A DNA stretch of 64,000 nucleotides from positions 1 through 64,000 of the IMG/VR virus record IMGVR_UViG_3300029935_000001, one strand, 5' to 3'. The notes beneath the pieces are model-generated. The model had not been told where the DNA came from, did no database searches, and saw nothing but the letters and a program-made list of their open reading frames with translations. Positions 1-33,452 of this stretch are shown piece after piece (position 1 is the stretch's first letter; each line of letters opens with the position of its first letter). The stretch comes from a virus (lineage: Duplodnaviria; Heunggongvirae; Uroviricota; Caudoviricetes). The translations under genes were made by a program, and so were the position numbers.

Positions 1-342
1 AAGAAATCGGAAAATAGGAAAAACCTAGGAAGCCATAAACCAAGTTGGATGGAGCTCAAATTTGCAGAGTATCTCAATACTAACTCCATAGTTGGGTGGC
101 AAACCGAAAAACACTTTTGGTCCTCGGAGTTAAGAAAAAGCTTTTATCCAGACTTCTTGTTTGAAGATCTAAAGCTAATTATCGAGCTCGACGGGACACA
201 GCATCGAAAAACAGTAGAACACGACGCGCTACGAGATCAGTGGTTTAACTCAATCGGTTATCGCGTAATACGAGTTTCGCACGCGGAGTTTAAAGATCGA
301 CTATTCTCGGGGCGAGGATTTAAGGATTTATTGGGCAGCTGA
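1..342 (+). CDS. DUF559/Vsr-like putative homing endonuclease (5' truncated by window edge)
   Basis: Frame is open from base 1. Motifs FYPDF, IIELDG.QH, D..RD.W, G..V.R. The stop codon lies inside the downstream tRNA-Leu. Confidence 0.8.
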   Translation, partial: KKSENRKNLGSHKPSWMELKFAEYLNTNSIVGWQTEKHFWSSELRKSFYPDFLFEDLKLIIELDGTQHRKTVEHDALRDQWFNSIGYRVIRVSHAEFKDRLFSGRGFKDLLGS

Positions 343-415
343 CAAATGCAAATAGGCACAGCTACTACGCTTAGAACGTAGGTTTTTCCGGGTTCGAATC
401 CCGGGCTGCCCACCA
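333..415 (+). tRNA. tRNA-Leu(TAG), short variable loop, atypical D arm (replacement tRNA in HEG cassette)
   Basis: gggcagc/gctgccc acceptor, ctacg-CT TAG AA-cgtag, TTCGAAT T loop, ACCA. Confidence 0.85.
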
Positions 416-421
416 AGATAA

Positions 422-465
422 AGGTGCCGAAAGGCGTGAGAGTTCGAGTCTCTCCCTGCGCACCA
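422..465 (+). pseudogene. orphan 3' half of a Leu-type tRNA
   Basis: Variable arm gccgaaaggc, T arm gagag-TTCGAGT-ctctc, cctgcgc-ACCA; no adjacent 5' half. Confidence 0.8.
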
Positions 466-473
466 AGAACAAT

Positions 474-550
474 TGACTAGTAGCTCAGCTGGTAGAAGCG
501 CTTGGCTGTTAACCAAGATGTCGTAGGTTCGATCCCTACCTAGTCAGCCA
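474..550 (+). tRNA. tRNA-Asn(GTT)
   Basis: cttgg-CT GTT AA-ccaag, tgactag/ctagtca, GCCA. Confidence 0.9.
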
Positions 551-693
551 GAATTGACACTGATGTAAACGCAATGTAGCATTAACAAAGCGTAGATCGG
601 GCAGTGTTGAGTAGCAATGCGCAACGACCGATATGTCGCAGTCGAAGATGAGGCCCGGCTCTATCGAGACTTAATACTCCGGGACCGGATAAC

Positions 694-779
694 GGGTGGC
701 ATGCTACAAGGTGTGGCAAGAGACTGTAAATCTCTCGTCCTTCGGGACATGCTTGGTTCGATTCCAAGGCTACCCACCA
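694..779 (+). tRNA. tRNA-Tyr(GTA)
   Basis: agaga-CT GTA AA-tctct, long variable arm, ACCA. Confidence 0.9.
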
Positions 780-787
780 AACATAGC

Positions 788-861
788 CGGGGTATGGTGT
801 AATGGCAGCACCACAGTCTTTGACACTGTTAGTTCTGGTTCGAGTCCAGATACCCCAGCCA
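788..861 (+). tRNA. tRNA-Gln(TTG)
   Basis: acagt-CT TTG AC-actgt, GCCA. Confidence 0.9.
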
Positions 862-869
862 AAGAATTA

Positions 870-929
870 AGGATTGTTTCAGCAACCTAAAATAATTTCA
901 CTTTTACTGAAACCAAAAAGCAATCCTGA
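870..929 (+). ncRNA. scaffold RNA copy 1 with Lys(TTT)-like anticodon stem-loop
   Basis: AGGATTG-TTTCAGCAA ... tttca-CT TTT AC-tgaaa ... CAATCCT-GA. Confidence 0.7.
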
Positions 930-942
930 ACTTACAAAATGT

Positions 943-1018
943 GGACGCGTCGACTTCTGGTGAGGTCATCACCCTTTCAAGGTGACTAGGTTCGGTTCGA
1001 ATCCGACCGCGTCTACCA
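943..1018 (+). tRNA. tRNA-Glu(TTC)
   Basis: tcacc-CT TTC AA-ggtga, ACCA. Confidence 0.88.
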
Positions 1019-1025
1019 AAAATTA

Positions 1026-1102
1026 CTCTCAGTCGGTTAGCGGTCTATACCACCTGTTTTGGGAACAGGATTTCGCAAGTTCGAATCTTGCCTGAGAGAC
1101 CA
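1026..1102 (+). tRNA. tRNA-Pro(TGG)
   Basis: cctgt-TT TGG GA-acagg, ACCA. Confidence 0.9.
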
Positions 1103-1111
1103 GAAACAAAC

Positions 1112-1186
1112 GGCCTCAAGATGTTCATGGACGCATACCTGTCTGTCTAACAGGAAGAGTGGGATCGTTACCCACTGAGGTCGCCA
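1112..1186 (+). tRNA. tRNA-Asp(GTC), T loop ATCGTTA
   Basis: cctgt-CT GTC TA-acagg, GCCA. Confidence 0.85.
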
Positions 1187-1194
1187 AACAACAA

Positions 1195-1270
1195 GGTTCC
1201 AAGGTGTTCATGGATGCACGCATGCCTGTCACGCATGAGGAGTCGGGATCGTTACCCGCTGGGACCGCCA
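1195..1270 (+). tRNA. tRNA-Asp(GTC), T loop ATCGTTA
   Basis: catgc-CT GTC AC-gcatg, GCCA. Confidence 0.85.
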
Positions 1271-1277
1271 AAACATT

Positions 1278-1356
1278 GCTCACTCAACGCGAGATGCGTA
1301 GTCCCAAGATCGCAACTTAGGGCTGGAGTGCGGTGAGATACCGACGGTGAGCGCCA
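1278..1356 (+). ncRNA. non-canonical tRNA-like RNA
   Basis: gctcact/ggtgagc acceptor + GCCA, elongated anticodon arm, GAGAT loops in both D and T positions. Confidence 0.55.
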
Positions 1357-1363
1357 CAACAGC

Positions 1364-1394
1364 ATACCTATAGTGTAATTGGCAGCACGCTAGT
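1364..1394 (+). pseudogene. orphan tRNA 5' half (probably Trp) interrupted by HEG
   Basis: ataccta-TA-gtgt-AATTGGCA-gcac-G-ctagt, then AT-rich HEG leader. Confidence 0.65.
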
Positions 1395-1425
1395 GTTGTA
1401 TAAATACATAAAAGGAAATGTTTTT

Positions 1426-2079
1426 ATGTATTTTATAGTATACAAAACTACTAACACCGTAAATAACAAGTATTATATTGGGTGTCATCAAACAGACAAC
1501 TTATCTGACGGCTATTTGGGGTCAGGAAAACTTTTAACGCGTGCAATTAAAAAGTATGGGGTTAACAACTTTAGCTTTGAAGTCCTGCACTTTGCTGAAA
1601 CTAAACTCGATATGTTTGCTTTAGAAAGAAGGTTGGTAACCGAAGACGTTGTTAAAGACCCAATGTCTTATAACTTAAAAGTCGGCGGTAGCGGGGGCAA
1701 CCCCAGTATTGTTGGAGCATTTACCGGCAAGAAACATTCGCCAGAAACAAAAGATAAGATAAGTCGGGCTAACAAGGGACGAGAAGTTAGTGATCAAGTA
1801 AGAAAGAAACTGTCTGAAAACAATTGGGCAAAACGAGATCCTATTGCGCAACAACAGCATGCCAAAAAAATTGCAAGTTTGCCAAAGTCAGATTCCCATA
1901 AACAAAAATTGAGGGAAGCTATCATTAGGAATCAGTCCAACACTGGTATTGGCGGCAAACGCAACAAAGGAAAAATTAGGAAACGAGTCAAATGCCCTCA
2001 CTGTTTTAAAGAAGGTGCAATGAATACTATGAGTCGATGGCATTTTGATAACTGCAGAGTTAAATCCGCATCCTGCTAG
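1426..2079 (+). CDS. GIY-YIG (Seg-like) homing endonuclease with NUMOD3 repeats
   Basis: IVYKTTN..N.KYYIG.H, GYLGSG, YN...GG, GKKHSPETK, C-terminal CPHC; RBS aagga and TATAAATA upstream. Confidence 0.9.
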   Translation: MYFIVYKTTNTVNNKYYIGCHQTDNLSDGYLGSGKLLTRAIKKYGVNNFSFEVLHFAETKLDMFALERRLVTEDVVKDPMSYNLKVGGSGGNPSIVGAFTGKKHSPETKDKISRANKGREVSDQVRKKLSENNWAKRDPIAQQQHAKKIASLPKSDSHKQKLREAIIRNQSNTGIGGKRNKGKIRKRVKCPHCFKEGAMNTMSRWHFDNCRVKSASC

Positions 2080-2145
2080 CTCAACTGGCAGAGCGCCAGT
2101 CTCCAAAACTGAAGGTTTGCGGTTCGACTCCGCGGCAGGATGCCA
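2070..2145 (+). tRNA. tRNA-Trp(CCA) overlapping HEG stop codon
   Basis: ccagt-CT CCA AA-actga, atcctgc/gcaggat, GCCA. Confidence 0.88.
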
Positions 2146-2160
2146 AGATAAATAAGTTAT

Positions 2161-2266
2161 GGGCCCATAGCTCATCTGGGAGAGCAACGGTTTTGCCAAG
2201 TGCCTTTTGAATGTAGGGTATTTGGCAAGCCGTAGGTGGTCGGTTCGAGTCCGACTGGGTCCACCA
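2161..2266 (+). tRNA. tRNA-Ala(TGC) with 30-nt hairpin insertion in anticodon loop
   Basis: G3:U70 acceptor gggccca/tgggtcc ACCA; removing 2197-2226 leaves a canonical 76-nt tRNA. Confidence 0.8.
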
Positions 2267-2308
2267 GATATATCCACTAGCGAGCGAATACAGTAGGATA
2301 AATACTGT

Positions 2309-2923
2309 ATGAGAATTTACGAAATCGAGTCTGCTGCTCGCAGCACAACAGTGTATCACGGCACCGCTAGAAAAAATCTAGTCGGAATCATGAAGACCGG
2401 CTTAGTCCCAAGGATAAATCGCTGGGAGAATAAATTTAACGCGCCTGGGCAAAAAGCCAGTGGCGAAAAAGCAGTGTTTGTAACGCCAAATTTCGACGAT
2501 GCAAAATTGTTTGCCGATCAAAACCGCGACGGCGGCGCAGTAGTGGCTTTTGAGTTGTTACCTACTGATGTAGTAGACGCTGAGCAGTTTTATTCAAATG
2601 AATTATTGGTACGAAACACAGTTGCACCTACAAGAATTCGAGTGGTTTGGCCTGCATCAGCAAATCAGGAAAAGTTGCGCAACCAAGCTGCAGCAAGTCT
2701 TAATAAAACTGAATTAATCAGGCAATTAAATAAAATCACCAAAGAGAGCCTGTGGACCATTAAGTCTGCGTCAAAAACTACTTCGAGGGTATTAACCTTC
2801 CGAGTTGGTAATCCGTACTACGATACATCAATATTACTCGCGGAATACCCAGGATTTTTAGAAGAAAAAGGGGTTGACCCCGCAGTAGTAAACCAAGTAA
2901 AATCAATTTTAAATCAGTCCTGA
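2309..2923 (+). CDS. putative ADP-ribosyltransferase/Tpt1-fold protein
   Basis: YHGT, I.KTGL.P, VFVT motifs; TAAATA upstream. Confidence 0.5.
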   Translation: MRIYEIESAARSTTVYHGTARKNLVGIMKTGLVPRINRWENKFNAPGQKASGEKAVFVTPNFDDAKLFADQNRDGGAVVAFELLPTDVVDAEQFYSNELLVRNTVAPTRIRVVWPASANQEKLRNQAAASLNKTELIRQLNKITKESLWTIKSASKTTSRVLTFRVGNPYYDTSILLAEYPGFLEEKGVDPAVVNQVKSILNQS

Positions 2924-3085
2924 ACCTAACACAATGCCGCCGAGTTAAAGCAACTACTTGCAGGGCGGGATATAAATCACTTGCTAAAGGAGGCGATAAT
3001 GAACAATCCAGATACAGAGCTTGGTGGCTTTGGATTCCCAGGGTATTCAGAATATACCCGCGGCTAACCAAGACAAAAGAACAAT

Positions 3086-3256
3086 CGCGGCTTCGGATGG
3101 GCCGGAGTGTATCGTGTTGCGGGTTAGTGTAATTGGCAACACGCGGGGCTCATAACCCCGAGACATCTAATGCTAGTCCTGGTTCGAGTCCAGGGCCCGC
3201 AACACGATACACTCAAATGCCTTTTTGGGGGAGTTCGATTCTCCCGGCCGCATCCA
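3086..3256 (+). pseudogene. outer degenerate tRNA enclosing tRNA-Met
   Basis: cgcggct (3086) pairs with ggccgca-TCCA; T arm gggag-TTCGATT-ctccc. Confidence 0.6.
3118..3202 (+). tRNA. tRNA-Met(CAT), initiator-like anticodon stem, long variable region, no encoded CCA
   Basis: cgggg-CT CAT AA-ccccg, tgcgggt/gcccgca. Confidence 0.85.
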
Positions 3257-3373
3257 AAACTGTAGTGGAACACGATCGAAACTATCGGCGTAAAACTGGT
3301 TAACTCCAGAGTTGTCAATAGTGGGGCTCATTGTGTCAGAGTTGAGAACTCCTGCTACAAACGAAAGACATGT

Positions 3374-3448
3374 GGGGGTATAGCTCAGCGGTAGAGCTTT
3401 CGGCTTTTAACCGAAATGTCCTTGGTTCGAACCCAAGTGCCCCTACCA
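3374..3448 (+). tRNA. tRNA-Lys(TTT)
   Basis: ttcgg-CT TTT AA-ccgaa, ACCA. Confidence 0.9.
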
Positions 3449-3523
3449 CAGAGTACTCCTGCTGGTAGCCTACGCATACTACTAGCAGGGAAGGGAAGCG
3501 CGTAGGCTTCCCGAGAGATTTAT

Positions 3524-3599
3524 GCCAGGTTGACCCGAGAGGTGAGGGGCCATCCTTACAAGATGGAGTATGCTGGTTCGAGTCCAGCACCTGGTACCA
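3524..3599 (+). tRNA. tRNA-Val(TAC)
   Basis: ccatc-CT TAC AA-gatgg, ACCA. Confidence 0.88.
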
Positions 3600-3605
3600 G
3601 AATAA

Positions 3606-3659
3606 AGGATCGTTTCCGCAATTTAAAACTATCTTTTGGTGATAAAAACGCGATCCTGA
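3606..3659 (+). ncRNA. scaffold RNA copy 2 with Gln(TTG)-like anticodon stem-loop
   Basis: AGGATCG-TTTCCGCAA ... tatc-TT TTG GT-gata ... CGATCCT-GA. Confidence 0.7.
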
Positions 3660-3691
3660 TTTATTCGATTATCGCAGGGTGAGCTCTTTGT

Positions 3692-3764
3692 GCAGTGGTT
3701 GCATAAGTGGTCTGTGCGCTAGATTGAAACTCTAGAGGACATCGTTCGATTCGATGCCGCTGCA
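3692..3764 (+). tRNA. tRNA-Phe(GAA), replacement tRNA, no encoded CCA
   Basis: ctaga-TT GAA AC-tctag, gcagtgg/ccgctgc. Confidence 0.85.
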
Positions 3765-4613
3765 CAAAGAGCTCAAGAACCCTAAGTGAATGTGTTTTAA
3801 CGGCAATACTACAACTTTAACAGAATTTTGCTGTATGACTGCTTGAATTTTTTCGTAGTCTCGCTTAATTAAGAAGTCGTTTTTTGGATCTAAATAAAGG
3901 TCTAAATCCGGGAGATAAAAGTCAGGGTAGTAGTTATGTGTCTTTCCGTGTAGAGTATACAGCAATGGCTTAGGTCGGCACCAGTTAACTTTTAACTCTT
4001 CTAACAGCGCAGCACACTTACTTTCGAAGGTTGACTCGAGTCGGACTGGCGTTCCGTACGAATCTACGGTATAAGAGGTTTTCCCTGACCTTATTCCGTT
4101 TTTTCCAAGGTTATTAGCTAATGCGTTTTTTGTTGCAGCAGCAGACCTACACTGCGGCGAACACGTTTTCCTAGTCCCCGGATGCCATTTTTGGCAATTG
4201 ATGCACTGTGAAACCCGGGTAAATTTTTTTCGAGTAGTGCCCGTTGCTGCGTTGCTGATAGAGCAACGCGCACTATCTGTATGTCGCCAGCCAGATTCGT
4301 TGCGCTTTTTGTTGTTAAATTTCGCCGAACACGAACGAGAACAAAATTTAGCAATATTGCGATAATCGTAGCTAATGGGCGCTTCGCACTCAATGCATTT
4401 AGACGGATGCTTGAAGTATTCGGCAATTTTTTTATGTTTGTTAGACACATTTGGGTGTTGAAATTTAGAACGCGCAAGTTTAGCAATAGCAGCATGTTGG
4501 GACTTGCGTTCAGCATCGTGTAATAAGTAGTGAGAGTGAATACCCTTCGCTGAGTTAATCTTGTGACATATAACGCAAGAACACAGCGGCGATTTGTATG
4601 ATGTGTTAGACAT
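3732..4613 (-). CDS. putative homing endonuclease, Zn-finger + PD-(D/E)xK (YYPDFYL..YLDPKN family)
   Basis: CxxC/FCSxSC repeats and YYPDFYLPDLDLYLDPKND; C-terminus reads antisense through tRNA-Phe. Confidence 0.8.
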   Translation of the reverse strand: MSNTSYKSPLCSCVICHKINSAKGIHSHYLLHDAERKSQHAAIAKLARSKFQHPNVSNKHKKIAEYFKHPSKCIECEAPISYDYRNIAKFCSRSCSAKFNNKKRNESGWRHTDSARCSISNAATGTTRKKFTRVSQCINCQKWHPGTRKTCSPQCRSAAATKNALANNLGKNGIRSGKTSYTVDSYGTPVRLESTFESKCAALLEELKVNWCRPKPLLYTLHGKTHNYYPDFYLPDLDLYLDPKNDFLIKRDYEKIQAVIQQNSVKVVVLPLKHIHLGFLSSLCSGIESNDVL

Positions 4614-4627
4614 ACAGTATTTAGCGT

Positions 4628-4667
4628 AAATCCGTAAAGCCTGGTTCGATTCCAGGACCCTGCACCA
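4628..4667 (+). pseudogene. 3' half of the original (Phe-type) tRNA; its 5' end is gcagggt at 3674
   Basis: cctgg-TTCGATT-ccagg accctgc ACCA, complementary to gcagggt 3674-3680. Confidence 0.8.
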
Positions 4668-4882
4668 GCTTTAACAGTGTTGATGATCAATGGGCCGTGG
4701 TAAAGCACGAGGGAGACAGCCAACTCACATCCGTCAGCCTAGCGCTGCGATACAGAAGGCACAGTAGCAGTATTCTGGTCCGCCGACCGATAAAACTTAC
4801 CTGCTCTGATCAGGCAGGGGCAACGCTGTTAATAATATTTGCTGTACTCAGTAGCAACTAAATAAAAGTAGATTAAGATTTA

Positions 4883-4958
4883 CTCTCCGTGGCGTAATCT
4901 GGTAGCGTGGTGCGTTTGGGGCGCAGCGGTCCTGGTTCAAATCCAGGCGGGGAGACCA
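4883..4958 (+). tRNA. tRNA-Pro(TGG)
   Basis: gtgcg-TT TGG GG-cgcag, ACCA. Confidence 0.88.
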
Positions 4959-4966
4959 TTTATAAT

Positions 4967-5090
4967 TCCATCGTAGCTCAGCGGTAGAGCCGCGGACTGT
5001 GGGCAAAGTAGATAGGCTACTATCCGGTTCAAGCCCGGTATGCCAAAAGTAATCCGTTGGTCGGAGGTTCGAGCCCTCCCGATGGAGCCA
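4967..5090 (+). tRNA. tRNA-Asn(GTT) with 49-nt insertion inside the anticodon
   Basis: gcgga-CT GT[5001-5049]T AA-tccgt, tccatcg/cgatgga, GCCA. Confidence 0.75.
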
Positions 5091-5104
5091 GCTTTACAAT
5101 ATGT

Positions 5105-5179
5105 TCCCTGTTAGCTCAGCGGCAGAGCAATCGCCTTGTAAGCGATAGGTCGAGATCTCGGAATTCTCACAGGGAACCA
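5105..5179 (+). tRNA. tRNA-Thr(TGT), atypical T loop
   Basis: atcgc-CT TGT AA-gcgat, tccctgt/acaggga ACCA. Confidence 0.8.
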
Positions 5180-5207
5180 AGAATTCATTGCGATATAATA
5201 TTATAAC

Positions 5208-5236
5208 ACTTGCTTAGCTCAGTCGGTAGAGCAGAA
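5208..5236 (+). pseudogene. 5' half of the original (Ile-type) tRNA
   Basis: acttgct-TA-gctc-AGTCGGTA-gagc; pairs with agcaagt at 6030. Confidence 0.8.
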
Positions 5237-5279
5237 TGTTGAGCTCTATCATAAATAGTATTATATAATAGAGCTGAAC

Positions 5280-5945
5280 ATGGCACATACTAAAACAATT
5301 AAGTGCGAAAAGTGTGGGCTAGCCATTCGAGCCAACAATTTTAACCGTCATTATAACGCATGCGGACCGAAGGCACCAAAAAAGGTGCGAGGCATAGATT
5401 TTGACCCAAACTGGGGGTATAAAGATGGTTCCCGAGTTGCTTGGAACAAAGGATTGTCGAAAGATACTGACGAACGAGTAAAGGCATACGCTGCGTCTGT
5501 AAAACTGTCGGCCCGAAGCCCGTGGCACGGTCGATGCTTGGACCCGATTAAAGAGCAAGAGCGCAGGAAGAAGATTTCGGCTAAACTAAAAGGAGTAGCC
5601 GGTGGATACCGGGCAAATGCGGGCCGCAGTAAAAAATTCAAAGTCTTTGACTCGTTTGGAAAGCATACTGTACTCCAGAGTACGTATGAATACGTTGTGT
5701 ATGAGATTTTATGCGAATTAGGGATTAGGTGGATTAGGCCTTCTGCTCTAAAATACAATCAGCGAAATTACTTTGCAGATTTTTATCTAATAGACTTTGG
5801 GGTATATCTTGACCCAAAAAATGATTACAAAGCAGCACAAGACAAAGAAAAAATCAAAGCAGTAATAGAACAAAATAACGTTAAACTAGTAGTGCTTCTA
5901 AAGCATCAACTTACGAAGTACGACATTCAAAAGCTCTGTAGTTAA
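5280..5945 (+). CDS. putative homing endonuclease (YFADFYL..YLDPKND family)
   Basis: N-terminal CxxC, AWNKG NUMOD-like motif, PD-(D/E)xK core; stop lies inside tRNA-Ile. Confidence 0.8.
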   Translation: MAHTKTIKCEKCGLAIRANNFNRHYNACGPKAPKKVRGIDFDPNWGYKDGSRVAWNKGLSKDTDERVKAYAASVKLSARSPWHGRCLDPIKEQERRKKISAKLKGVAGGYRANAGRSKKFKVFDSFGKHTVLQSTYEYVVYEILCELGIRWIRPSALKYNQRNYFADFYLIDFGVYLDPKNDYKAAQDKEKIKAVIEQNNVKLVVLLKHQLTKYDIQKLCS

Positions 5946-6005
5946 ATGGTATAACAATCGGCTGATAACCGGTAATTACAAGTTCAATTCTTGTCGGAGC
6001 TACCA
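5932..6005 (+). tRNA. tRNA-Ile(GAT), replacement tRNA
   Basis: atcgg-CT GAT AA-ccggt, agctctg/cggagct ACCA. Confidence 0.88.
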
Positions 6006-6040
6006 GGACCGCCCTGGTTCGAATCCAGGAGCAAGTACCA
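6006..6040 (+). pseudogene. 3' half of the original tRNA started at 5208
   Basis: cctgg-TTCGAAT-ccagg agcaagt ACCA. Confidence 0.8.
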
Positions 6041-6351
6041 GATTTAAACGAGCCGCCTGATCAGCGGAAACACCAAGCGGAGCACTGTTAGCCATTGTGC
6101 TAGCAGTCACGGGAACTTGGCATCCTGCGTGGCCCGGAGCGCAGGAACCGAATTTAACCTAAGCGCTGAGCGGAGTAATCAGCTTCACAGTGGGCACGAC
6201 GCAAGTGTGGATGACTTGCACGGTTTGGGGAGAAACAAGTAGTGGCGCCGCTATTTTACTGAGCGCAGTTGCGCGAAGCCCAAATTGGTCTTACCGGTAG
6301 ACGCAGGTTCGAATCCTGCCGGGCCCTGCCAAACTAACACAGGATACAATT

Positions 6352-6594
6352 ATGTTCCGAGACCGTTACAATAACGAAATCCACGTAGGCGATTGCATCT
6401 TTGTATGCTATGCATATCGTTGGTCCGACCAAGATCACTCGTGGCTTACTGCTCGCGTAACGCAGATTGAACCCGAGAAGCGCACTGTGAAAGTGCGCTT
6501 TGATGATGAAGCGTTTGATCGCAACGCAATGAAAGAACAGTGTGTTCATATTGACGCACCGGAGATGTTGATTCGAGTGCTAAAAGGATCTTAA
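6352..6594 (+). CDS. hypothetical protein
   Basis: ORF with RBS (agga), SH3/KOW-like pattern EIHVGD. Confidence 0.6.
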   Translation: MFRDRYNNEIHVGDCIFVCYAYRWSDQDHSWLTARVTQIEPEKRTVKVRFDDEAFDRNAMKEQCVHIDAPEMLIRVLKGS

Positions 6595-6724
6595 ACCGCT
6601 AGCCGTTTGACGATAAGCAGGATCGAGCAGGCTCTAAGCTGTAATCAGACTGTAGAGTAATAAATCGTCACTAAACAACGCCTGCAAAGCTAAGGGAAGC
6701 GGCAACTTAGCAAGATTTAACTGG

Positions 6725-6799
6725 ATCCTCGTAGCTCAGTGGAAGAGCGACGGTCTACGAAACCGTAGGGCGGAAATTCGAATTTTCCCGAGGATGCCA
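6725..6799 (+). tRNA. tRNA-Arg(ACG)
   Basis: acggt-CT ACG AA-accgt, GCCA. Confidence 0.9.
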
Positions 6800-6822
6800 C
6801 TTTTAACGTAAACAGCTTGGGT

Positions 6823-6893
6823 GTGGCCATGGTGTAATGGTAGCACAACAGGATGTGGCCCTGTTAGACTGAGTTCAATCCTCAGTGGTCACC
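6823..6893 (+). tRNA. tRNA-His(GTG)
   Basis: acagg-AT GTG GC-cctgt, gtggcca/tggtcac, C discriminator. Confidence 0.85.
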
Positions 6894-6915
6894 CCCAAGC
6901 TGTTTCCTAAAACAT

Positions 6916-6991
6916 AGGATGGTTCCAGCAGTCATTTTACATGCCAGTCAGCGCTCAACTGACATTAAAAACTGAGCACAACCCATCCTGA
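6916..6991 (+). ncRNA. scaffold RNA copy 3 with pseudoknot payload
   Basis: AGGATGG-TTCCAGCAG ... gtcag-CGCTCAA-ctgac (loop GCTCA can pair with TGAGC) ... CCATCCT-GA. Confidence 0.65.
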
Positions 6992-7006
6992 TTTTACAAA
7001 AAGTGG

Positions 7007-7062
7007 TTGACACCAGTGCTCCTACTCTGTATAATAGCTACATACAGTAACGCAACGGAGCA
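7007..7062 (+). promoter_or_regulatory. repeated early sigma70 promoter + leader + RBS cassette (also near 7325, 10264, 13192, 13739, 28712, 37538, 38672)
   Basis: TTGAC-N17/18-TATAAT followed by agctacata(c/a)..gtaacgcaacGGAG. Confidence 0.85.
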
Positions 7063-7066
7063 GTAA

Positions 7067-7697
7067 ATGAATCAAGTCTTTGCTAGCTTGAAAGCGCAAG
7101 CGGTTGCTGAAGTCTCTGCTGAGCTCAGCGGCGCAAGTGCCGAGTTTGCTGCTCGCGTCGAGCAAGTGTTTGCTGAACTGATTGTCAAAAAGTGTGCTGA
7201 CTATGCTGACATGGCTTACAACGCCCGTTGTAAGTATCCTGGCGATTACGTTGCCGAAGCAATGGAGTGCGGGGTTACCGAAGGCGTTACTGCCTGGCGC
7301 GGCTAACGTTTTTCGAGAAAACAGTTGACAAGCAACAAAGTCAACTGTATAATAGCTACATACAGTAACGCAACGGAGCACAAGAAATGATCAAAGAGCT
7401 TGCAGGTATTAAGGTTGGTCAAACTTTTGTTTCGCGCGTGAATGGCACGCAAGTGACCATTACTGCTGTGATGGGACCGTACTTGGTCTACCGCGATAAG
7501 CACGGTTGCTACTTCAACAAAACTCCGGCAGCGTTTGCCAAACAATACAAGTGAGCGAAAAGATCATGGAATATACTGTTATCGTTGCTGGCAACAACCG
7601 CACTTCGTTCACTGCTGCTCAGCTGCATAGCATGCTGAACTATATCACTAGCTTGGTCACCCAAGGCGTTCCGTTCACAGTGACCACGCAAAGCTAA
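7067..7697 (+). CDS. three small early hypothetical ORFs (7067-7306, 7387-7554, 7566-7697)
   Basis: The first two directly follow promoter/RBS cassettes; the third follows the second. Confidence 0.65.
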
Positions 7698-7858
7698 AGG
7701 AACAATATCCACTGTGGGATTAGGCCCTGCTACCAACGGGAATACATAACCGTCTGCTAGGAATGCTGGGCACACAGGATGAGGTGTGAGTCCTTAGCTA
7801 ATGCCTGGATGGTAAGGCGAGTGTTGCGAGCGATACACAGAATCCATCCCAGAACAAT

Positions 7859-7975
7859 GCCGCTGTCGTCTAATTGGTTAGGACGCTAAAAGCGATCCTG
7901 TCACAGGATCCATACAGCACTCAAATTTTCCACTGCTAATGGAGAAATGTTGGTTCGAATCCAACCGGCGGCTCA
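7859..7975 (+). ncRNA. tRNA(GCT)-like RNA with a permuted scaffold inserted between D arm and anticodon arm (copy 4)
   Basis: gccgctg/cggcggc, D arm, GATCCTG-tca-CAGGATC-catacagca, ttcca-CT GCT AA-tggag, T arm TTCGAAT. Confidence 0.7.
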
Positions 7976-8249
7976 GGAGAAAGTAACATGCGTGACAACG
8001 TAAATAAGTTTAAAAGTCGCGAGTACGAGTGGCATCCTCGGCGAAGCTGGAAACGCCGCTACTTGCAAGACCTGAAGAAGCTGTTTTACAGCGAGTAATT
8101 AGATTTTGCTTGTGTATGTGCGCAGACACCATATGTGGTCGATTGTTAAACCAAGCCCGCAATCGACGGACCTGATGTGCGCAGTAGTTTGAAGTTGATT
8201 CAAATCAGCTAGTAGCTTGGGCACTGCTAGCGGCAAGCAAGAAGTATTA

Positions 8250-8381
8250 AGGAAGTTTTCAGCAATCAAATCTTACTAGGAAACTGGTGCCGCAAGGCTT
8301 GGAGGTTCGAGTCCCTCCTGCTGTACCTGGTACGGCAGTGGCGAAATGGCAAACGCGCCGGTTAAGAAAAAGACTTCCTGA
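8250..8381 (+). ncRNA. scaffold RNA copy 5 carrying a circularly permuted Leu-type tRNA body (YrlA-like topology)
   Basis: AGGAAGT-TTTCAGCAA, variable arm, T arm, loop-closed acceptor ctgctgtac/gtacggcag, D arm, ACTTCCT-GA. Confidence 0.75.
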
Positions 8382-8385
8382 TTTT

Positions 8386-8476
8386 GGGTGATTGACTGAG
8401 GCGGTAAAGTGCCTGATTGCTAATCAGAGGCCAGCCAGAAATGGCTGCAAAGGTTCGAATCCTTTATCACCCGCCA
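8386..8476 (+). tRNA. tRNA-Ser(GCT)
   Basis: cctga-TT GCT AA-tcaga, long variable arm, GCCA. Confidence 0.88.
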
Positions 8477-8484
8477 AGAACAAC

Positions 8485-8559
8485 GAAGGGTTGGCCGAAA
8501 AGCGAGGCACCTGCCTGCAAAGCAGGACTATGTGGTGGCAGAATCCACACCCTTCTCCA
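8485..8559 (+). tRNA. tRNA-Cys(GCA), atypical T loop
   Basis: cctgc-CT GCA AA-gcagg, U discriminator TCCA. Confidence 0.85.
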
Positions 8560-8723
8560 CAATAGGATCAACGTAGATGAGAAGATGGGCGTTGATCTTA
8601 AAATACTACTCGACCATTTTCTCCGCAAGTAGCTGTTCACTGCGTATATTATATTGAATGATAGATGAAGTACCCTGCTACAGCGCACTCAGTGCGCTGT
8701 AGCAGCTTAACCCTAAAATTAAC

Positions 8724-8975
8724 ATGACCGATAAAATTCTAAAATTCAGCGCCAAATGGTGTGGCCCGTGTAAACAACTAGCGATGACACTTCACGGCGA
8801 AGACCTTGGTGTTCCGGTAGTTGAGGTAGATATCGAGCAAGAGTCTGCAGTTGCGCAACAGTATGGTGTTCGAAGCGTACCTACCTTGGTGTATGTGCGC
8901 AAAGACACAGAAGTAAGCCGGCTCATTGGAGCTCAGCCACTTGAAAAGATTCGCGATTGGGCAGCAGTTCAGTAA
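8724..8975 (+). CDS. trxA: thioredoxin
   Basis: WCGPCK active site, VPT motif. Confidence 0.9.
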   Translation: MTDKILKFSAKWCGPCKQLAMTLHGEDLGVPVVEVDIEQESAVAQQYGVRSVPTLVYVRKDTEVSRLIGAQPLEKIRDWAAVQ

Positions 8976-8977
8976 AT

Positions 8978-9052
8978 AGTCCTATAGTCTAGTAGATAAA
9001 ACAGCACCCTCATAAGGTGTATTCCTTGGTTTGAGCCCAAGTAGGACTACCA
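8978..9052 (+). tRNA. tRNA-Met/Ile2(CAT)
   Basis: gcacc-CT CAT AA-ggtgt, agtccta/taggact ACCA; a TilS gene is nearby. Confidence 0.82.
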
Positions 9053-11137: not shown

Positions 11138-12836
11138 AAAAACTTATCGCTGCCCTTGTGCTCGGTGCTAGTGTTAGCGCGTGTGCTGGCGCTGATCCGG
11201 TTCTAATCACTGCCAGTGCCGATGGCACTCAGTATTACGGCCACCCTGCAACCTTTGTCCAGCACAACAATGGGTACAGTATCATGATCACTATGATTAC
11301 GCCCACAACTGCCTACTCTGACAGTCGCACGCGAGCCTACATTGGCATCACAGCGTATGATTGCGCTCGCAAAGCTGGCGACCTTTATACCAGTCCTGCT
11401 GCCGACGCAGCATGGGAAAATAATGGTCCTGTAAATCTTAACAACCCAAAAACCATTGCCGATCGCCTTGCTCAAGTGCTGTGCGAAGTAGGAGCCATGG
11501 TCGCAAGCGCAGGAGTTGGGCTATGATCTTTGGCTCAACACACGCGCAACGCAAACGACGCAAGCAATTAGCTGAGATTAAAAAAATCTACGGCGCGAAA
11601 AAGTTTGCGTGGTTTCCAATCCAGCTAGCTAGTGGTCGGTATGCGTGGCTAGTTACCTACTACGAATACAGCGCCTGGGATTGTACCTGGCTGCACAATA
11701 GTAACTGGTCAGTGATCGAAGATGCGTGGGCAGTGCCACACCCTGCGCCGCAGCGCTACCTTGATCGCTCAGCAGACTACGTTCATTGTAGCCACCGAGG
11801 CTCTGCAGAGCAACTAGCGGAGTGGGTTCAGACGGTGAAGCGGAGTGGGTTCAAATGGTGAACAACGATGTCGGGTAGGCGCTTATCACCAAAAGACATG
11901 TCAGCTGCCCGCCACAAGATGGAAATCTTCAACTCCATGCTCAAGCGAGGCGAAGTGGTTGATGCTGACCGAATCGAACGCTTGCACCACGTTGTGTGTG
12001 GTTGCGGCGCCGAAGGTTGTATTTTTATTTCAGCGCAGCGACGAGCCGACGAGGCAGCAAAACATGATTGAAGTCCTAATCACCGACCAATACGTCACAA
12101 ACGGGGAATCCGAAGCATTCTTTGCTCGGCTGGATCAGTGGGCGCGTGAGGTGTGCCCACACGCATATCACGGATACGACGTGATCGACGTGTCAGATTT
12201 TTCTAGCCGTTACGATCTAGTTGGCGCCTTTAAATTCTCTGATCGAAAGCAAGCAGACTGGTTTTACTTTACGCACTGCGGAAACCACTGATCTAGATGT
12301 AAGCTCAACGTTGGACCTGGCCATAAATAATAGATCAGAACAGGAAAAAAGATACCATGCAAATTAAAGAAATCATCAAATCTGCCGAGATAAGCATCGA
12401 AGCTATTCGGTGGCGCCCTCAGTGCAAGCAAGTGTTAACGTCACTGTTTGCGCAGAAGTACCCGGGCACTGAGCTTTATTTTGCTAACAACAGCAACATG
12501 GGCACCTTGTTTGTCACTACCGACAAGAACAACATCCGCAAAAAGGATGTGATGTCTTACTACAGCGAGCCGACTGAGCATTTCAACGCAAGCATTTACG
12601 GCCCGCAACTAGAAGAAGACGACGACGGAACCCGGTATGTAGGGTATGGGTTTGACGCCATCGACAGTGGTCGATTCAAGGGCATAGTGATGCCGTTTTT
12701 GCAAACAGTAGTTCCGCCACTAGCTACGCGGTTTAACGCAGAACCCGCGATTATGATAATGGTCGAGGATCAAAGTGCTGGCGCATGGCAAGGAATAGCA
12801 AACAAGCTAGGGTGGCATTACTTTAACCCTGGTTAA
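11134..12836 (+). CDS. cluster of hypothetical ORFs (11134-11526 signal peptide, 11523-11861, 11868-12071, 12064-12291, 12357-12836)
   Basis: Abutting ORFs on the + strand. Confidence 0.55.
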
Positions 12837-12842
12837 AAAATA

Positions 12843-13170
12843 TTGCTGTAAACTCCGCAAGGAAAGAAGCAACGAGAAAGGTGTTTAAGACGGCGGGGCA
12901 GTGCCGCCCAGGTCCACCAAAAGCGAGATGACTCTGCGTACTGTGCTGTAGATACAGTTGCTGAACATTAGGATAACAGGTAGTCCTAGTCCGTTTTTGA
13001 TGGGCCTGAAACAGGATCGATTAGGCAACGAGTATTTGAGCCGACAGCACGGTAGGCGATGACCGTAAATCAAGCAAAACTTCAAACGCAAACGACAGCG
13101 TTTTTGACATCAAGCTAGCTGCTTAATGTCTGAGGTAGCCATACCTTATCACCCAAACTGGCAAAAAGCG
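12843..13170 (+). ncRNA. ssrA: two-piece (circularly permuted) tmRNA, tag ANDSVFDIKLAA*
   Basis: Acceptor piece ends ggcgg-GGCAGTG-ccgcc caggtcc ACCA (12919). Coding piece starts gggcctg (13002). Tag 13088-13126; terminator follows. Confidence 0.9.
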
Positions 13171-13188
13171 GCTTCGGCCGCTTTTTTA
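13164..13188 (+). terminator. rho-independent terminator
   Basis: aaaagcggc-TTCG-gccgctttttt. Confidence 0.8.
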
Positions 13189-18131: not shown

Positions 18132-18259
18132 GTCTACCGAATAAACCGGAGGTAGTGGATTCGAATTCCACACGCCGGACTAAACTTATTCTAACAAGTG
18201 AGTTTAGTCCGGCGGAAGCTCAAGTCTGGTATGAGCACCGGTCTCACGATGTTGGTAGA
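18132..18259 (+). ncRNA. circularly permuted tRNA-like RNA
   Basis: accgg, T arm gtgga-TTCGAAT-tccac, extended loop-closed acceptor, D arm gctc/gagc, ccggt. Confidence 0.7.
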
Positions 18260-18280
18260 GTTTTCTACCAACAAAGATTA

Positions 18281-18399
18281 AGGATGGATACAGCAACTTA
18301 CTCATACTATGAGATTCTACCTGCAGTAACTTAGGGGTAGATAGGGCTGAAGGCAAGCGCACAGCCAGAAAATAACTCAGCGCTCGCAAGCCATCCTGA
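18281..18399 (+). ncRNA. scaffold RNA copy 6 with multi-hairpin payload
   Basis: AGGATGG-ATACAGCAA ... CCATCCT-GA. Confidence 0.65.
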
Positions 18400-31040: not shown

Positions 31041-31082
31041 AGGTTTGATACCGCAAACCCTTACTCATATCATACAAACCTG
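31041..31082 (+). promoter_or_regulatory. scaffold copy 7 in the 5' UTR of the DUF2828-like gene, abutting the RBS
   Basis: TTGCAA-N17-TACAAT promoter, then AGGTTTG-ATACCGCAA ... CAAACCT-GGAG-N8-ATG. Confidence 0.75.
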
Positions 31083-31093
31083 GAGAACACAAA

Positions 31094-31612
31094 ATGAACA
31101 CTTTTGCACGAGCTGTAATCCGCGAAGCCGAAGATACTGAGAACGTTGGTTTTACTGCCAACGGCGCTGCAACCTTGTTGTCGTCTAAGGACGCGTTCAC
31201 CGACTTGTTCGCAGTGATCGGCTCTTCACGGCGCTCGCCTGAAAATGCCGTCGCGCAGTTCAAGACGTGCTACAAGATCGACCGCCGGCTCGCTCTGCGC
31301 ATCCTTCTATGGGCGCGTGATGCTCGAGGTGGTGCTGGTGAGCGCAATATCTTCCGCCAGTGCGTAGATACGCTGCCCGCCGAAGACAAGCTCACGCTGA
31401 TTAGCTCGGGTAAGATTGAAGAGCTCGGTCGCTGGGACGACTATATCAGGCTCATGATGGATAAGAACAGCCGTGTGGCTCGATCTGCGTCTACTCGTGT
31501 GCTCGAGACCATCAAGAGCGGGAACGCTGCTCAGGCGCTGCTTGATAGGCTTGACACAATGACAGACTCAGAAGCTGCTGCGGCGTTGGCGGACTTACAG
31601 CGGGCAAAATGA
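31094..31612 (+). CDS. DUF2828-like protein, N-terminal fragment
   Basis: T.NGA, DLF, ARD.RGGAGER..FR, GRWDD. Confidence 0.8.
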   Translation: MNTFARAVIREAEDTENVGFTANGAATLLSSKDAFTDLFAVIGSSRRSPENAVAQFKTCYKIDRRLALRILLWARDARGGAGERNIFRQCVDTLPAEDKLTLISSGKIEELGRWDDYIRLMMDKNSRVARSASTRVLETIKSGNAAQALLDRLDTMTDSEAAAALADLQRAK

Positions 31613-32340: not shown

Positions 32341-32378
32341 AAAACTATTTATGTGGATGCCACGGAAAGGACAATAAA

Positions 32379-33452
32379 ATGAACGTAAAAGCTCAACTAA
32401 AGAAAGAACTGCGCGACATTGTGATGCGCGCCCAAAGATGCGCAAAGTGGATGCCTCGTCAAGGCATTGAAGCTGCTCGTATTCGCTCGCTCTTTGGTAT
32501 GGCCCCGAAGCTGTATCGCAAGATGCTGGTCGAAGGCACTCGGGTTGTTGAGACCCAGATGTGCGCAAAGAACTGGGAAGGCATCACCTATGAGCACGTA
32601 CCGTCGGTGGCTATGGCGCGGTACTCGCGCGCGTTCGCCCGCAATTCGCAAGTGGCATTTCCTGCCTATAAGGCAGCCCTCGAGGCCGGCACTGTGCAGG
32701 CCAAGTCTGCTGCGCTGTTTCCGTACGATGTAGCTCGCACGCTCAAAGGCGGCGACACTACCATCGCCAACGAGCAGTGGAAGGCGCTGCCTAACTACAT
32801 CGACGGCCGTGCCAAGCTCTTCCCAATTATCGACGTGTCTGGGTCCATGTCCTGCCAAGTAAGTGGCTCGGTAACGGCAATGGACATTGCTATCACTCTC
32901 GGACTGTATATCGCTGAGCGCCAAAACAGTGCCCTCAAGGACCTGTTTATGACGTTCGACGACACGCCACGCATGATCTCAGTAGCTGGCTGCTCGTCCT
33001 TCCAGGACCGGTACCGCAAGATCAAAGACGCGCCATGGGGTGGGTCAACTAACTTACAAGCATCGTTTGACCTACTGCTCAAGACCGCAGTAGACAACCG
33101 AGCGGCTCCGGAGGACATGCCCGAATACCTGTTCATCGTGTCCGACATGGAGTTCAACGAAGCGTGCGGCAGTGGGTATTACAGAGCGCGCAAGAGCGAA
33201 ACCAACTATGCCGAGATTGAACGCAAGTATCGCGCCAGCGGGTATCAGCGCCCGAACGTTATCTTCTGGAACGTCAACGCCCGTAACGGTAATATTCAAG
33301 TCGAGGCTGACGAGAACGGCACTGCAATGATCTCGGGGTTCTCTCCAAGCATCCTGCGCCCTCTGCTCAACGCCGAATCGGTAACTCCGCGGCAGATCAT
33401 GGAGGCAGCAGTGATGGTGCCGCGCTACACCGTCGAAGGGCTTACTGCGTAA
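32379..33452 (+). CDS. DUF2828-like protein, C-terminal fragment with vWA domain
   Basis: AKWMPR, VPSVAM, DVSGSM MIDAS, WG.STN, SDMEF, FWN, SGFS. Confidence 0.85.
   Translation: MNVKAQLKKELRDIVMRAQRCAKWMPRQGIEAARIRSLFGMAPKLYRKMLVEGTRVVETQMCAKNWEGITYEHVPSVAMARYSRAFARNSQVAFPAYKAALEAGTVQAKSAALFPYDVARTLKGGDTTIANEQWKALPNYIDGRAKLFPIIDVSGSMSCQVSGSVTAMDIAITLGLYIAERQNSALKDLFMTFDDTPRMISVAGCSSFQDRYRKIKDAPWGGSTNLQASFDLLLKTAVDNRAAPEDMPEYLFIVSDMEFNEACGSGYYRARKSETNYAEIERKYRASGYQRPNVIFWNVNARNGNIQVEADENGTAMISGFSPSILRPLLNAESVTPRQIMEAAVMVPRYTVEGLTA

Follow-up and report, generated by a model that had tools for sequence, protein, structure and literature searches.

Two small RNA elements in the tRNA array of a jumbo phage

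The analysed window covers the initial 64 kb of a jumbo phage genome from IMG/VR (IMGVR_UViG_3300029935_000001), which is complete, has terminal repeats and measures 323,407 bp. Its first 21 kb contain at least 25 tRNA genes, which are located on the plus strand throughout; the array is broken up by endonuclease-type open reading frames (ORFs), a permuted transfer-messenger RNA (tmRNA) and several odd tRNA-like pieces. Two short elements between the tRNAs, designated element 1 and element 2, are the subject of this analysis (Table 1). Element 1 is preceded by tRNA-Gln (788-861) at a distance of 8 nucleotides (nt) and followed by tRNA-Glu (943-1018) after 14 nt. The corresponding neighbours of element 2 are tRNA-Val (3524-3599), which ends 6 nt before it, and tRNA-Phe (3692-3765), which starts 33 nt after it. 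A sequence-only reading of the window had noted stem-loops with A-rich linkers and 7-nt loops at positions 870 (Lys-UUU) and 3606 (Gln-UUG), with U33 and a purine at position 37; these features are read directly from the sequence.

Both elements have the same layout: AGGATYG is followed by TTTCMGCAA, an A-rich linker, a short hairpin, a second A-rich linker, the complement of the first strand, and a G. The ends form a terminal stem of 7 base pairs (bp) with one unpaired G behind it, and the total length is 53-59 nt. In element 1, the 5' strand AGGATTG pairs with CAATCCT (921-927), followed by G928; in element 2, AGGATCG (3606-3612) pairs with CGATCCT (3651-3657), followed by G3658. The closing stems differ by a single compensatory pair change (U-A to C-G), and the hairpin stems are wholly unrelated. 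The loop of element 1 (901-907, CTTTTAC) corresponds to C32 U33 UUU A37 C38, that of element 2 (3634-3640, TTTTGGT) to U32 U33 UUG G37 U38. Both hairpins thus have the 7-nt loop, the U33 and the purine 37 of a tRNA-type anticodon arm, on a stem of 5 bp in element 1 and of 4 bp in element 2.

The elements were called neither by ARAGORN nor by any Rfam family (search of positions 1-22000 at an expectation value E≤1). A tRNA cloverleaf with D and T arms is absent from both; ARAGORN and RF00005 call the neighbouring tRNAs only. The 3' flanks (GAAC or GATT) lack a CCA, which the neighbouring tRNAs encode. A promoter and terminator scan of positions 1-5000 remained at chance level and gave no signals of their own for elements 1 and 2. 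A megablast search of positions 1-9000 against cultured phages yielded only 40-nt fragments of tRNA-Thr; therefore, no close cultured relative is available. The z-scores from single-sequence folding are weak (-1.2 to -2.9). The hairpins are A/U-rich and weak, and the structure rests on comparative evidence.

Elements 1 and 2 belong to a large family of phage RNAs

Homologous loci were collected by means of two pattern scans of IMG/VR. The first pattern (AAGGATNGTTTCMGCAA) gave mostly chance matches, which were filtered for the presence of a matching 3' strand. At least 226 loci were fetched in this way by the RNA pattern alone, and they contain at least 191 distinct short copies, most often 54-62 nt long. 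The part common to the family, here called the handle, consists of the 7-bp closing stem AGGAUYG/CRAUCCU, the subsequent G, and the unpaired motif UUUCMGCAA (WUUCMGCAA) beside the 5' strand. The C, G, C, A and A of this motif are invariant in the alignments A1-A3.

A MAFFT alignment of 52 short copies (A1) misaligned the 3' strands of the hairpins and was replaced by a curated seed of 20 sequences in one register (A3). The covariance model R1 was built from these 20 copies, which include element 1 and exclude element 2. R1 scores element 1 with 66.1 bits and recovers the non-seed element 2 with 35.9 bits (E 3.4e-7), with both helices aligned. The resemblance of element 2 to the family is therefore beyond chance. 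In 0.95 Mb of fetched phage loci, R1 found 242 matches at E≤1e-3. Among the 129 distinct aligned copies (A4), both-sided changes occur in 11 of the 12 pairs, and the covariation score is 0.614, compared to 0.127 after shuffling and at most 0.093 to 0.108 when the pairing partners are slid. The outer stem covaries at its two variable positions, where GC is found in 39, AU in 37, UA in 27, and CG in 26 copies; the hairpin stem likewise shows all four pair types. Since the seed was selected for complete (100%) pairing and the alignment A4 follows R1, the weight rests on the diversity of pair types and on the slid controls. Elements 1 and 2 are genuine members of a large, uncatalogued family of small phage RNAs, and both helices are conserved via covariation across this family.

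All 164 copies that have a tRNA in the fetched locus are located on the strand of that tRNA, and the median gap is 9 nt. Given the common strand and this spacing, the copies must be co-transcribed with the tRNAs. No matching Rfam family was found for the handle RNAs. Because tRNA finders and Rfam miss them, they are unannotated in hundreds of phage genomes.

The variable cargo has the character of an anticodon arm

The segment enclosed by the handle, the cargo, was analysed both with and without reference to R1. In a model-free set of copies collected by a regular expression, 42.5% of the cargo sequences fold at minimum energy into a hairpin with a 7-nt loop, compared to 4.5% for shuffled cargo. 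Among the model-aligned copies, 95 of 129 (74%) have a 7-nt loop. In these 95 loops, C32 is found in 68%, U33 in 88%, A37 in 93%, a purine 37 in 94%, and A38 in 84%. Counts at position 34 are 46 for U, 32 for G, 14 for C and 3 for A, as in the real anticodons of bacteria and phages. The 21 different triplets are nearly all real anticodons; the most frequent ones are UGU (15), GUU (12), UUU (12), CAU (11), GGA (6), UAU (6), UGA (5), and GAU (4). The conserved 7-nt loop, U33, A37 and the anticodon-like triplets indicate that the anticodon-arm reading holds across the family. The expectation of the sequence-only reading that homologs should keep loop length, U33 and a purine at 37, and should vary in their triplets among real anticodons, is thus borne out.

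The individual loops of the two elements recur on different stems: CUUUUAC of element 1 in one homolog (locus L183) on the stem TTAAA/TTTAA, and TTTTGGT of element 2 in eight other family members. Loops resembling that of element 2 recur as UUUUGGY, AUUUGGC, AUUUGAA and a 'UUGG' class, also in a Listeria phage.

The composition of the loops differs from that of the co-resident tRNAs at position 36. A U or A is found there in 90 of the 95 copies, but only in 864 of 1560 co-resident tRNAs (p 1e-16). More specifically, U36 occurs in 73% and A36 in 22% of the copies, C36 in none, while positions 34 and 35 vary freely; in 45% of the co-resident tRNAs, position 36 is a C or G. The hairpin stems are A/U-rich, with a G+C (GC) content of 0.22 versus 0.59. 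A recent duplication from the tRNAs of the same phage was considered as the origin of the cargo and rejected; only 0-6 of the 10 stem positions are shared with co-resident tRNAs of the same anticodon.

In element 1, the motif UUUCAG (877-882) can pair with CUGAAA (907-912), which is the minimum-energy fold of this element. The commonest hairpin stem of the family, UUUCA/UGAAA, repeats the handle motif, and a two-state switch is conceivable. For other stems (UUUGA, UUAGA, CUUUA), the alternative pairing of handle and hairpin is ruled out.

The handle is linked to the gene of a Ro60-like protein

On the same strand as elements 1 and 2, the window contains a gene for a DUF2828 protein with a DUF7788/vWA part. 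The gene is split into two separately startable pieces by a minus-strand ORF of 345 amino acids (31531-32568). Pfam detected no nuclease domain in the inserted ORF, only faint zinc-ribbon matches, and it is therefore not called HNH. The sequence-only reading had mentioned a DUF2828-like protein in connection with the stem-loops, and this link is supported by the fetched loci: DUF2828 homologs are encoded in about 57 of them, and 30 short handle copies lie directly upstream of the start codon of this gene.

Unsplit DUF2828 homologs comprise about 470 amino acids. An AlphaFold2 model was generated from 30 of them and has a mean predicted local distance difference test (pLDDT) score of 79.5. The best 12 PDB matches listed for this model were all Ro60/TROVE structures, matched over the full length with E values of 2.5e-8 to 4.5e-5 and template modelling (TM) scores of up to 0.60; the best fold matches are the Ro60 structures of Thermus phage phiLo. 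No TROVE match was found by Pfam anywhere in the genome, and a profile search of the PDB sequences with the Ro-like protein gave a chance match to S21 only. As Pfam and sequence profiles are blind to this relation and the match is structural, the predicted relation to Ro60 is one at the level of the fold. Full-length relatives of the Ro-like protein occur in 710 cultured phage records, and the identity to mycobacteriophage proteins annotated as 'Ro-like RNA binding protein' is 30-35%. No paper was found on the function of DUF2828.

In cultured phages, the handle RNAs and the Ro-like gene form compact arrangements. Mycobacteriophage Krypton555 encodes three handle RNAs behind its Ro-like gene, with a terminator closing the series. 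The second of them combines a T arm, a closed acceptor stem and a D arm; Rfam YrlA matches it with 38 bits, and this match covers only its tRNA-like portion (model positions 24-84). The third is an anticodon-arm copy whose loop reads CUGCUAA (R1 50 bits, E 6e-11). In Listeria phage LP-048, three handle RNAs are located between a promoter-like site and the Ro-like gene, and RtcB and an RNA ligase are encoded a few kb downstream of the latter. In E. coli phage EC6, at least four handle RNAs follow immediately after the Ro-like gene, within the tRNA array. The occurrence of YrlA in mycobacteriophages has been reported, and Ro60 loci of bacteria are known to contain, as a second Y RNA, a small hairpin (Chen et al. 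2014, PMC4201824). By analogy, the short anticodon-arm copies may be the natural counterpart of this second class. No paper describing anticodon-arm Y-like RNAs was found, the supplementary tables (phage list) of Chen et al. 2014 lying outside the comparison. Judging from linkage, fold and the phage YrlA homology, the phage Ro60-like ring protein (DUF2828 + vWA) most likely binds these RNAs at the handle.

Two side observations concern the neighbourhood of these genes. Inside the tRNA array of LP-048, a stretch (L241 4427-4978) matches the ROOL RNA with 90 bits, just under the cut-off of 99.1; the three handle RNAs with the Ro-like gene follow 640 nt downstream. In the window studied here, a T4 Rnl1-type RNA ligase is encoded at 39988-40620 (+, 47.7 bits); outside the window, the genome has an Rnl2-type ligase (75.6 bits; G000 216370-216915, +). 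No RtcB was found in the genome.

Further handle copies and tRNA-like pieces in the genome

A regular expression combining AGG-N4, CMGCA and the complement of N4-CCTG detected six handle copies genome-wide. All are located on the plus strand within the first 31 kb, and their cargo comprises 20 to about 110 nt (Table 1). R1 found no anticodon-arm copy beyond elements 1 and 2 across the genome.

Table 1. Handle RNAs and Ro60-like gene in the window.
Feature	Position	Strand	Basis
Element 1, handle RNA with Lys-like (UUU) anticodon-arm cargo	870..928	+	sequence; R1 66.1 bits
Element 1, closing stem, 5' strand AGGATTG	870..876	+	pairs with 921-927 CAATCCT, then G928
Element 1, unpaired conserved handle motif TTTCAGCAA	877..885	+	sequence; alignments A1-A3
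Element 1, putative anticodon-arm mimic, 5-bp stem	896..912	+	896-900 TTTCA / 908-912 TGAAA; aligned to R1 hairpin
Element 2, handle RNA with Gln-like (UUG) anticodon-arm cargo	3606..3658	+	sequence; R1 35.9 bits, E 3.4e-7
Element 2, handle motif TTTCCGCAA	3613..3621	+	sequence; R1 alignment
Element 2, putative anticodon-arm mimic, 4-bp stem	3630..3644	+	3630-3633 TATC / 3641-3644 GATA; R1 alignment
Third handle copy, 5-bp hairpin, loop CGCTCAA not anticodon-like	6916..6990	+	regular expression; R1 23 bits
Handle copy, large cargo including T-arm-like hairpin	8250..8380	+	regular expression; R1
Handle copy with 118-nt cargo	18281..18398	+	regular expression
Short handle copy, end 11 nt before ATG of Ro60-like gene	31041..31082	+	regular expression; R1 18 bits
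Ro60-like gene, N-terminal piece (DUF2828)	31094..31612	+	Pfam
Ro60-like gene, C-terminal piece (DUF2828 end + DUF7788/vWA)	32379..33452	+	Pfam; ORF list

Several tRNA-like pieces accompany these copies. The tmRNA at 12794-13188 (+) is of the permuted, two-piece type; it matches tmRNA_permuted with 112 bits and beta_tmRNA with 89.8 bits, both above the Rfam gathering scores. A weak YrlA-like Rfam match (24 bits, E 0.36) covers 18134-18261 (+), a stretch with a T arm, a long closed stem and a D-arm-like part that ends 20 nt upstream of the handle copy at 18281. The tRNA-shaped sequence at 7860-7965 (+) consists of an acceptor, a D arm, a hairpin with the loop CTGCTAA and a T arm. Inserted between the D arm and the anticodon-like hairpin is a permuted handle, in which CGATCCTG and a short loop are followed by AGGATCC-ATACAGCA; R1 gives a weak match at 7909-7955. 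The Rfam tRNA model matches 2161-2263 (103 nt) and 4967-5087 (121 nt), both on the plus strand and uncalled by ARAGORN; these are probably tRNAs with long insertions or introns. Finally, the region 340-470 (+), upstream of tRNA-Asn, contains two pieces at about 385-416 and 437-466, each made up of a T arm and an acceptor 3' end terminating in CCA. They were called neither by ARAGORN nor by Rfam, and the first one has a CTTAGAA hairpin resembling the anticodon arm of tRNA-Leu(UAG).

Proposed function of the handle RNAs

On balance, elements 1 and 2 are probably Y-RNA-like partners of this protein, with an anticodon arm presented as bait. According to the proposed mechanism, they would represent one family in which a conserved handle (the stem formed by the ends plus WUUCMGCAA) bears a variable cargo, here an anticodon-arm-like hairpin. 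They would be transcribed as part of the tRNA array, and the trimming of the adjacent tRNAs would probably set them free as well. Binding of the handle by the Ro60-like ring protein, as suggested by linkage, fold and the phage YrlA homology, would make these RNAs the counterparts of Y RNAs. The resulting particle would then present the anticodon arm to a protein that reads anticodon loops. Our leading, tentative guess for this target is a host tRNA-cutting defence nuclease, which would be diverted or trapped; the main alternative is the recruitment of tRNA repair or modification enzymes.

A number of observations weigh against this proposal. With respect to the RNA, the A/U-rich stems (GC 0.22) are not part of the minimum-energy fold in isolation; when the sequences are folded alone, the hairpin fold of element 1 has -5.3 kcal/mol versus -10.1 kcal/mol for the minimum, and that of element 2 has -7.7 versus -11.6 kcal/mol. 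The p-values and the covariation numbers overstate independence, because related sequences were counted and A4 was fitted to the model. About one quarter of the family has a cargo that is not anticodon-like, including the 'UUGG' class (loops of 5 to 11 nt) and the copies of E. coli phage EC6. With respect to the protein, the Ro-like gene is 27-30 kb away from elements 1 and 2, and the predicted pairing of handle RNA and protein derives from linkage. Moreover, the handle motif reads WACAGCAA or UUCMGCAA, whereas the published Ro-binding motifs are GNCGAAN0-1G in bacteria, GGUCCGA in animals, and CGAA; a search of elements 1 and 2 with RF02553 (YrlA) gave no match at E≤1.

Particles of Ro60 and Y RNA are known from bacteria and phages; in this family, the cargo corresponds recognisably to one specific part of a tRNA. 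The skew of the triplets toward nuclease-cut tRNAs would turn the vague idea of a 'tRNA mimic' into concrete experiments. Carriers of the family include phages of E. coli, Salmonella, Listeria and Mycobacterium smegmatis that are easy to grow, which makes such tests ordinary bench work.

Alternative explanations for the anticodon-like cargo

The sequence-only reading had proposed minimal decoys for anticodon nucleases or modification enzymes. In the nuclease version, host enzymes such as PrrC, RloC and PARIS AriB would be deceived or trapped, the arm being bound or cut instead of a tRNA of the cell or the phage. This is a special case of the bait proposal. The canonical anticodon-loop consensus is found family-wide, and the triplets UGU, GUU and UUU account for 39 of the 95 copies (41%), compared to 173 of 1560 co-resident tRNAs (11%). 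The sequence U36AAU39 is present in 49 of the 65 copies with U36 (75%) and in 149 of the 519 tRNAs with U36 (29%); U39 occurs in 44 of 47 copies of the regular-expression set. UUU, UGU and GUU are the anticodons of the three E. coli targets of PARIS AriB, and U36-A-A-U39 is their shared site motif (PMC12409363). The two enrichments thus match the AriB targets and lend circumstantial support to the decoy idea, although they may partly stem from the A/U-rich composition and the A31-U39 closing pair. Furthermore, some tRNA nucleases, activated Cas13b6 among them, accept an anticodon stem-loop on its own (PMC13692257). The phage itself encodes an Rnl1-like tRNA repair ligase besides its tRNAs, and in LP-048 the Ro-like gene is close to RtcB and an RNA ligase.

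Set against these points are the two elements themselves, which lack U36AAU39; their positions 36-39 read UACU and GGUG. AriB did not cut tRNA-Gln(UUG) in vitro (PMC12409363), and cleavage by AriB needs contacts with the D-loop, outside the anticodon arm. A decoy would face competition from the plentiful tRNA of the cell, an unfavourable stoichiometry. In addition, the same loop consensus and a similar loop repertoire are found in phages of Proteobacteria, Firmicutes and Actinobacteria, very different hosts in which the defence nucleases differ, and the same handle occurs outside any defence setting in the Class I RNAs of Dictyostelium. A role as decoy for tRNA-cutting defence enzymes is plausible but, as a specific function, rather unlikely, and clearly less probable than the wider bait proposal that includes it.

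In a second scenario, which we consider unlikely, the particle is a platform for tRNA damage and repair, comparable to the Ro60/Y RNA encoded beside RtcB in bacteria, which spots broken or misfolded tRNAs and uses the cargo to recruit a ligase, a kinase-phosphatase or an exonuclease instead of the attacker. It has been suggested that Ro60 and a tRNA-like partner serve jumbo phages as a platform for RNA repair (PMC7824862), and the Ro60 of Thermus phage phiLo with its Y-like RNAs binds the host PNPase (PMC12135203). The proximity of RtcB and RNA ligase to the Ro-like gene in LP-048 and the Rnl1-like and Rnl2-like ligases of the phage point in the same direction. However, the phage has no RtcB, and its ligases are 9 kb and 185 kb away from the Ro-like gene. 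Nor is it explained why repair enzymes should be recruited by a complete anticodon arm and not by the tRNA elbow.

Less probable still is a role as sponge or substrate for enzymes that modify the anticodon loop. The determinants of N6-threonylcarbamoyladenosine at position 37 (t6A37) match the consensus C32-U33-N-N-U36-A37-A38, and copies with A36-A37 would suit N6-isopentenyladenosine (i6A37). Such a role would be in line with the prevalence of U36, A36 and A37, with the free positions 34 and 35 and with the frequent C36 or G36 of the co-resident tRNAs. YrlA is modified by tRNA enzymes (PMC4201824). It speaks against a sponge that titration of t6A or i6A enzymes has no evident benefit for the phage and that element 2, with G36 G37, does not fit.

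The elements could also be functionless, either decayed tRNA genes or mere spacers or processing signals of the array. They are located between tRNAs at tRNA-like spacing, the motif is faintly D-arm-like (CTCAGC), and the 7-bp closing stem is like an acceptor stem. This explanation is very improbable: hundreds of copies in unrelated phages keep the handle and both helices by compensatory changes, they are tightly linked to one protein family, and the same handle occurs with other types of cargo and in Dictyostelium Class I RNAs. Decayed tRNA genes in particular are disfavoured, because the relatives show covariation and not random decay.

A reading of the elements as functional minimal 'armless' tRNAs for Lys and Gln codons could draw on the 7-bp terminal stem with one unpaired G, the anticodon-like loop and the length of 53-59 nt, which is close to that of armless tRNAs of nematode mitochondria. 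This reading is rejected with near certainty, since the elements lack the CCA encoded by most tRNAs of the array, have no D or T arm and no ARAGORN or Rfam tRNA match, keep AGG/CCU at the ends of the terminal stem whatever the triplet and thus no acceptor identity elements, share their handle with cargo that has no anticodon, and accompany full genes for tRNA-Lys(UUU) and tRNA-Gln(UUG) in the same array.

Comparison with known systems

Imitation of an anticodon arm is known from mRNA leaders. In the thrS operator of E. coli, for example, a hairpin imitates an anticodon arm and binds a protein that recognises tRNA. Similarly, one family copy is located in the leader of the Ro-like gene. In contrast, elements 1 and 2 are free-standing between tRNAs, and the family shows many triplets.

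A second comparison concerns the tRNA-Lys, tRNA-Thr and tRNA-Asn of phage T5, which act against PARIS AriB (PMC11464382, PMC12409363). They share with the handle RNAs the location in a phage tRNA array and the same three dominant anticodons, and the likeness would place the family in a conflict over anticodon loops. The T5 tRNAs, however, are complete, decode, and evade cleavage by changes at positions 39, 41 and 16, whereas the handle RNAs cannot decode and mostly retain the site U36AAU39.

Among the closest known systems is that of Ro60 (Rsr/TROVE) and its Y RNAs (YrlA/YrlB of bacteria and mycobacteriophages; Yrn1/Yrn2 of D. radiodurans; RF02553; Yrl1/Yrl2 of phiLo). Common to both are a ring protein, here predicted from the Ro60 fold and the vWA part, and several small RNAs on the same strand, often directly beside the protein gene. 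As in Y RNAs, the ends are paired and a conserved unpaired motif lies on the 5' side, here represented by the covarying 7-bp stem and the invariant C.GCAA. The variable second module mimics part of a tRNA, and a small hairpin RNA accompanies a tRNA-like one; in Krypton555, the YrlA itself carries the handle of the phage family. There are also clear differences. The phage protein, a predicted binder of the handle, matches Pfam DUF2828/DUF7788 and not TROVE. The cargo of the family is the anticodon arm, the one part of a tRNA that YrlA lacks. Y RNAs usually lie within a few kb of the protein gene; most members of the phage family are instead dispersed over tRNA arrays, at distances of up to 30 kb.

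A further relative may exist in eukaryotes. The Class I RNAs of Dictyostelium (Aspegren 2004; Avesson 2011; Kjellin et al. 2021, PMC7919456; search pattern in PMC5054030) comprise about 60 nt with 32-41% GC. Like the handle RNAs, they have a short covarying stem that joins the ends, directly after its 5' strand an adjacent 11-nt motif of the form ..U..C..CAA (CCTTACAGCAA), a variable interior, and a 3' end in which the stem is followed by CUG(U). Element 1 agrees with this pattern: its 11-mer TGTTTCAGCAA fits all five fixed positions (T3, C6, C9, A10, A11), and with a 7-bp stem, 59 nt and the 3' end ..CCTG it has the layout of a Class I RNA. The handle of phage EC6, TTTACAGCAA ... TCTGG, is likewise Class-I-like. 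As judged from these patterns, Class I RNAs share the handle architecture of the phage family. They differ in being eukaryotic and having their own upstream promoter element (DUSE); the only direct binder reported for them is the RRM protein Rnp1A, and an anticodon-like cargo has not been described. For Class I RNAs, the phage family would offer a candidate protein partner and a relative in viruses of prokaryotes. In the widest and most speculative version of the proposal, a Ro60-like particle would combine a universal handle with interchangeable arms (Lys, Thr, Asn, Met, Ile, Gln, and others) and would trap, sense or neutralise host enzymes that attack tRNA anticodon loops. If true, this would amount to an RNA-based anti-defence system shared by hundreds of phages, among them Felix O1-like coliphages, Listeria P100-like phages and mycobacteriophages. 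The handle of the Class I RNAs would then point to one ancient particle of handle RNA and Ro-like protein that is shared by viruses and eukaryotes.

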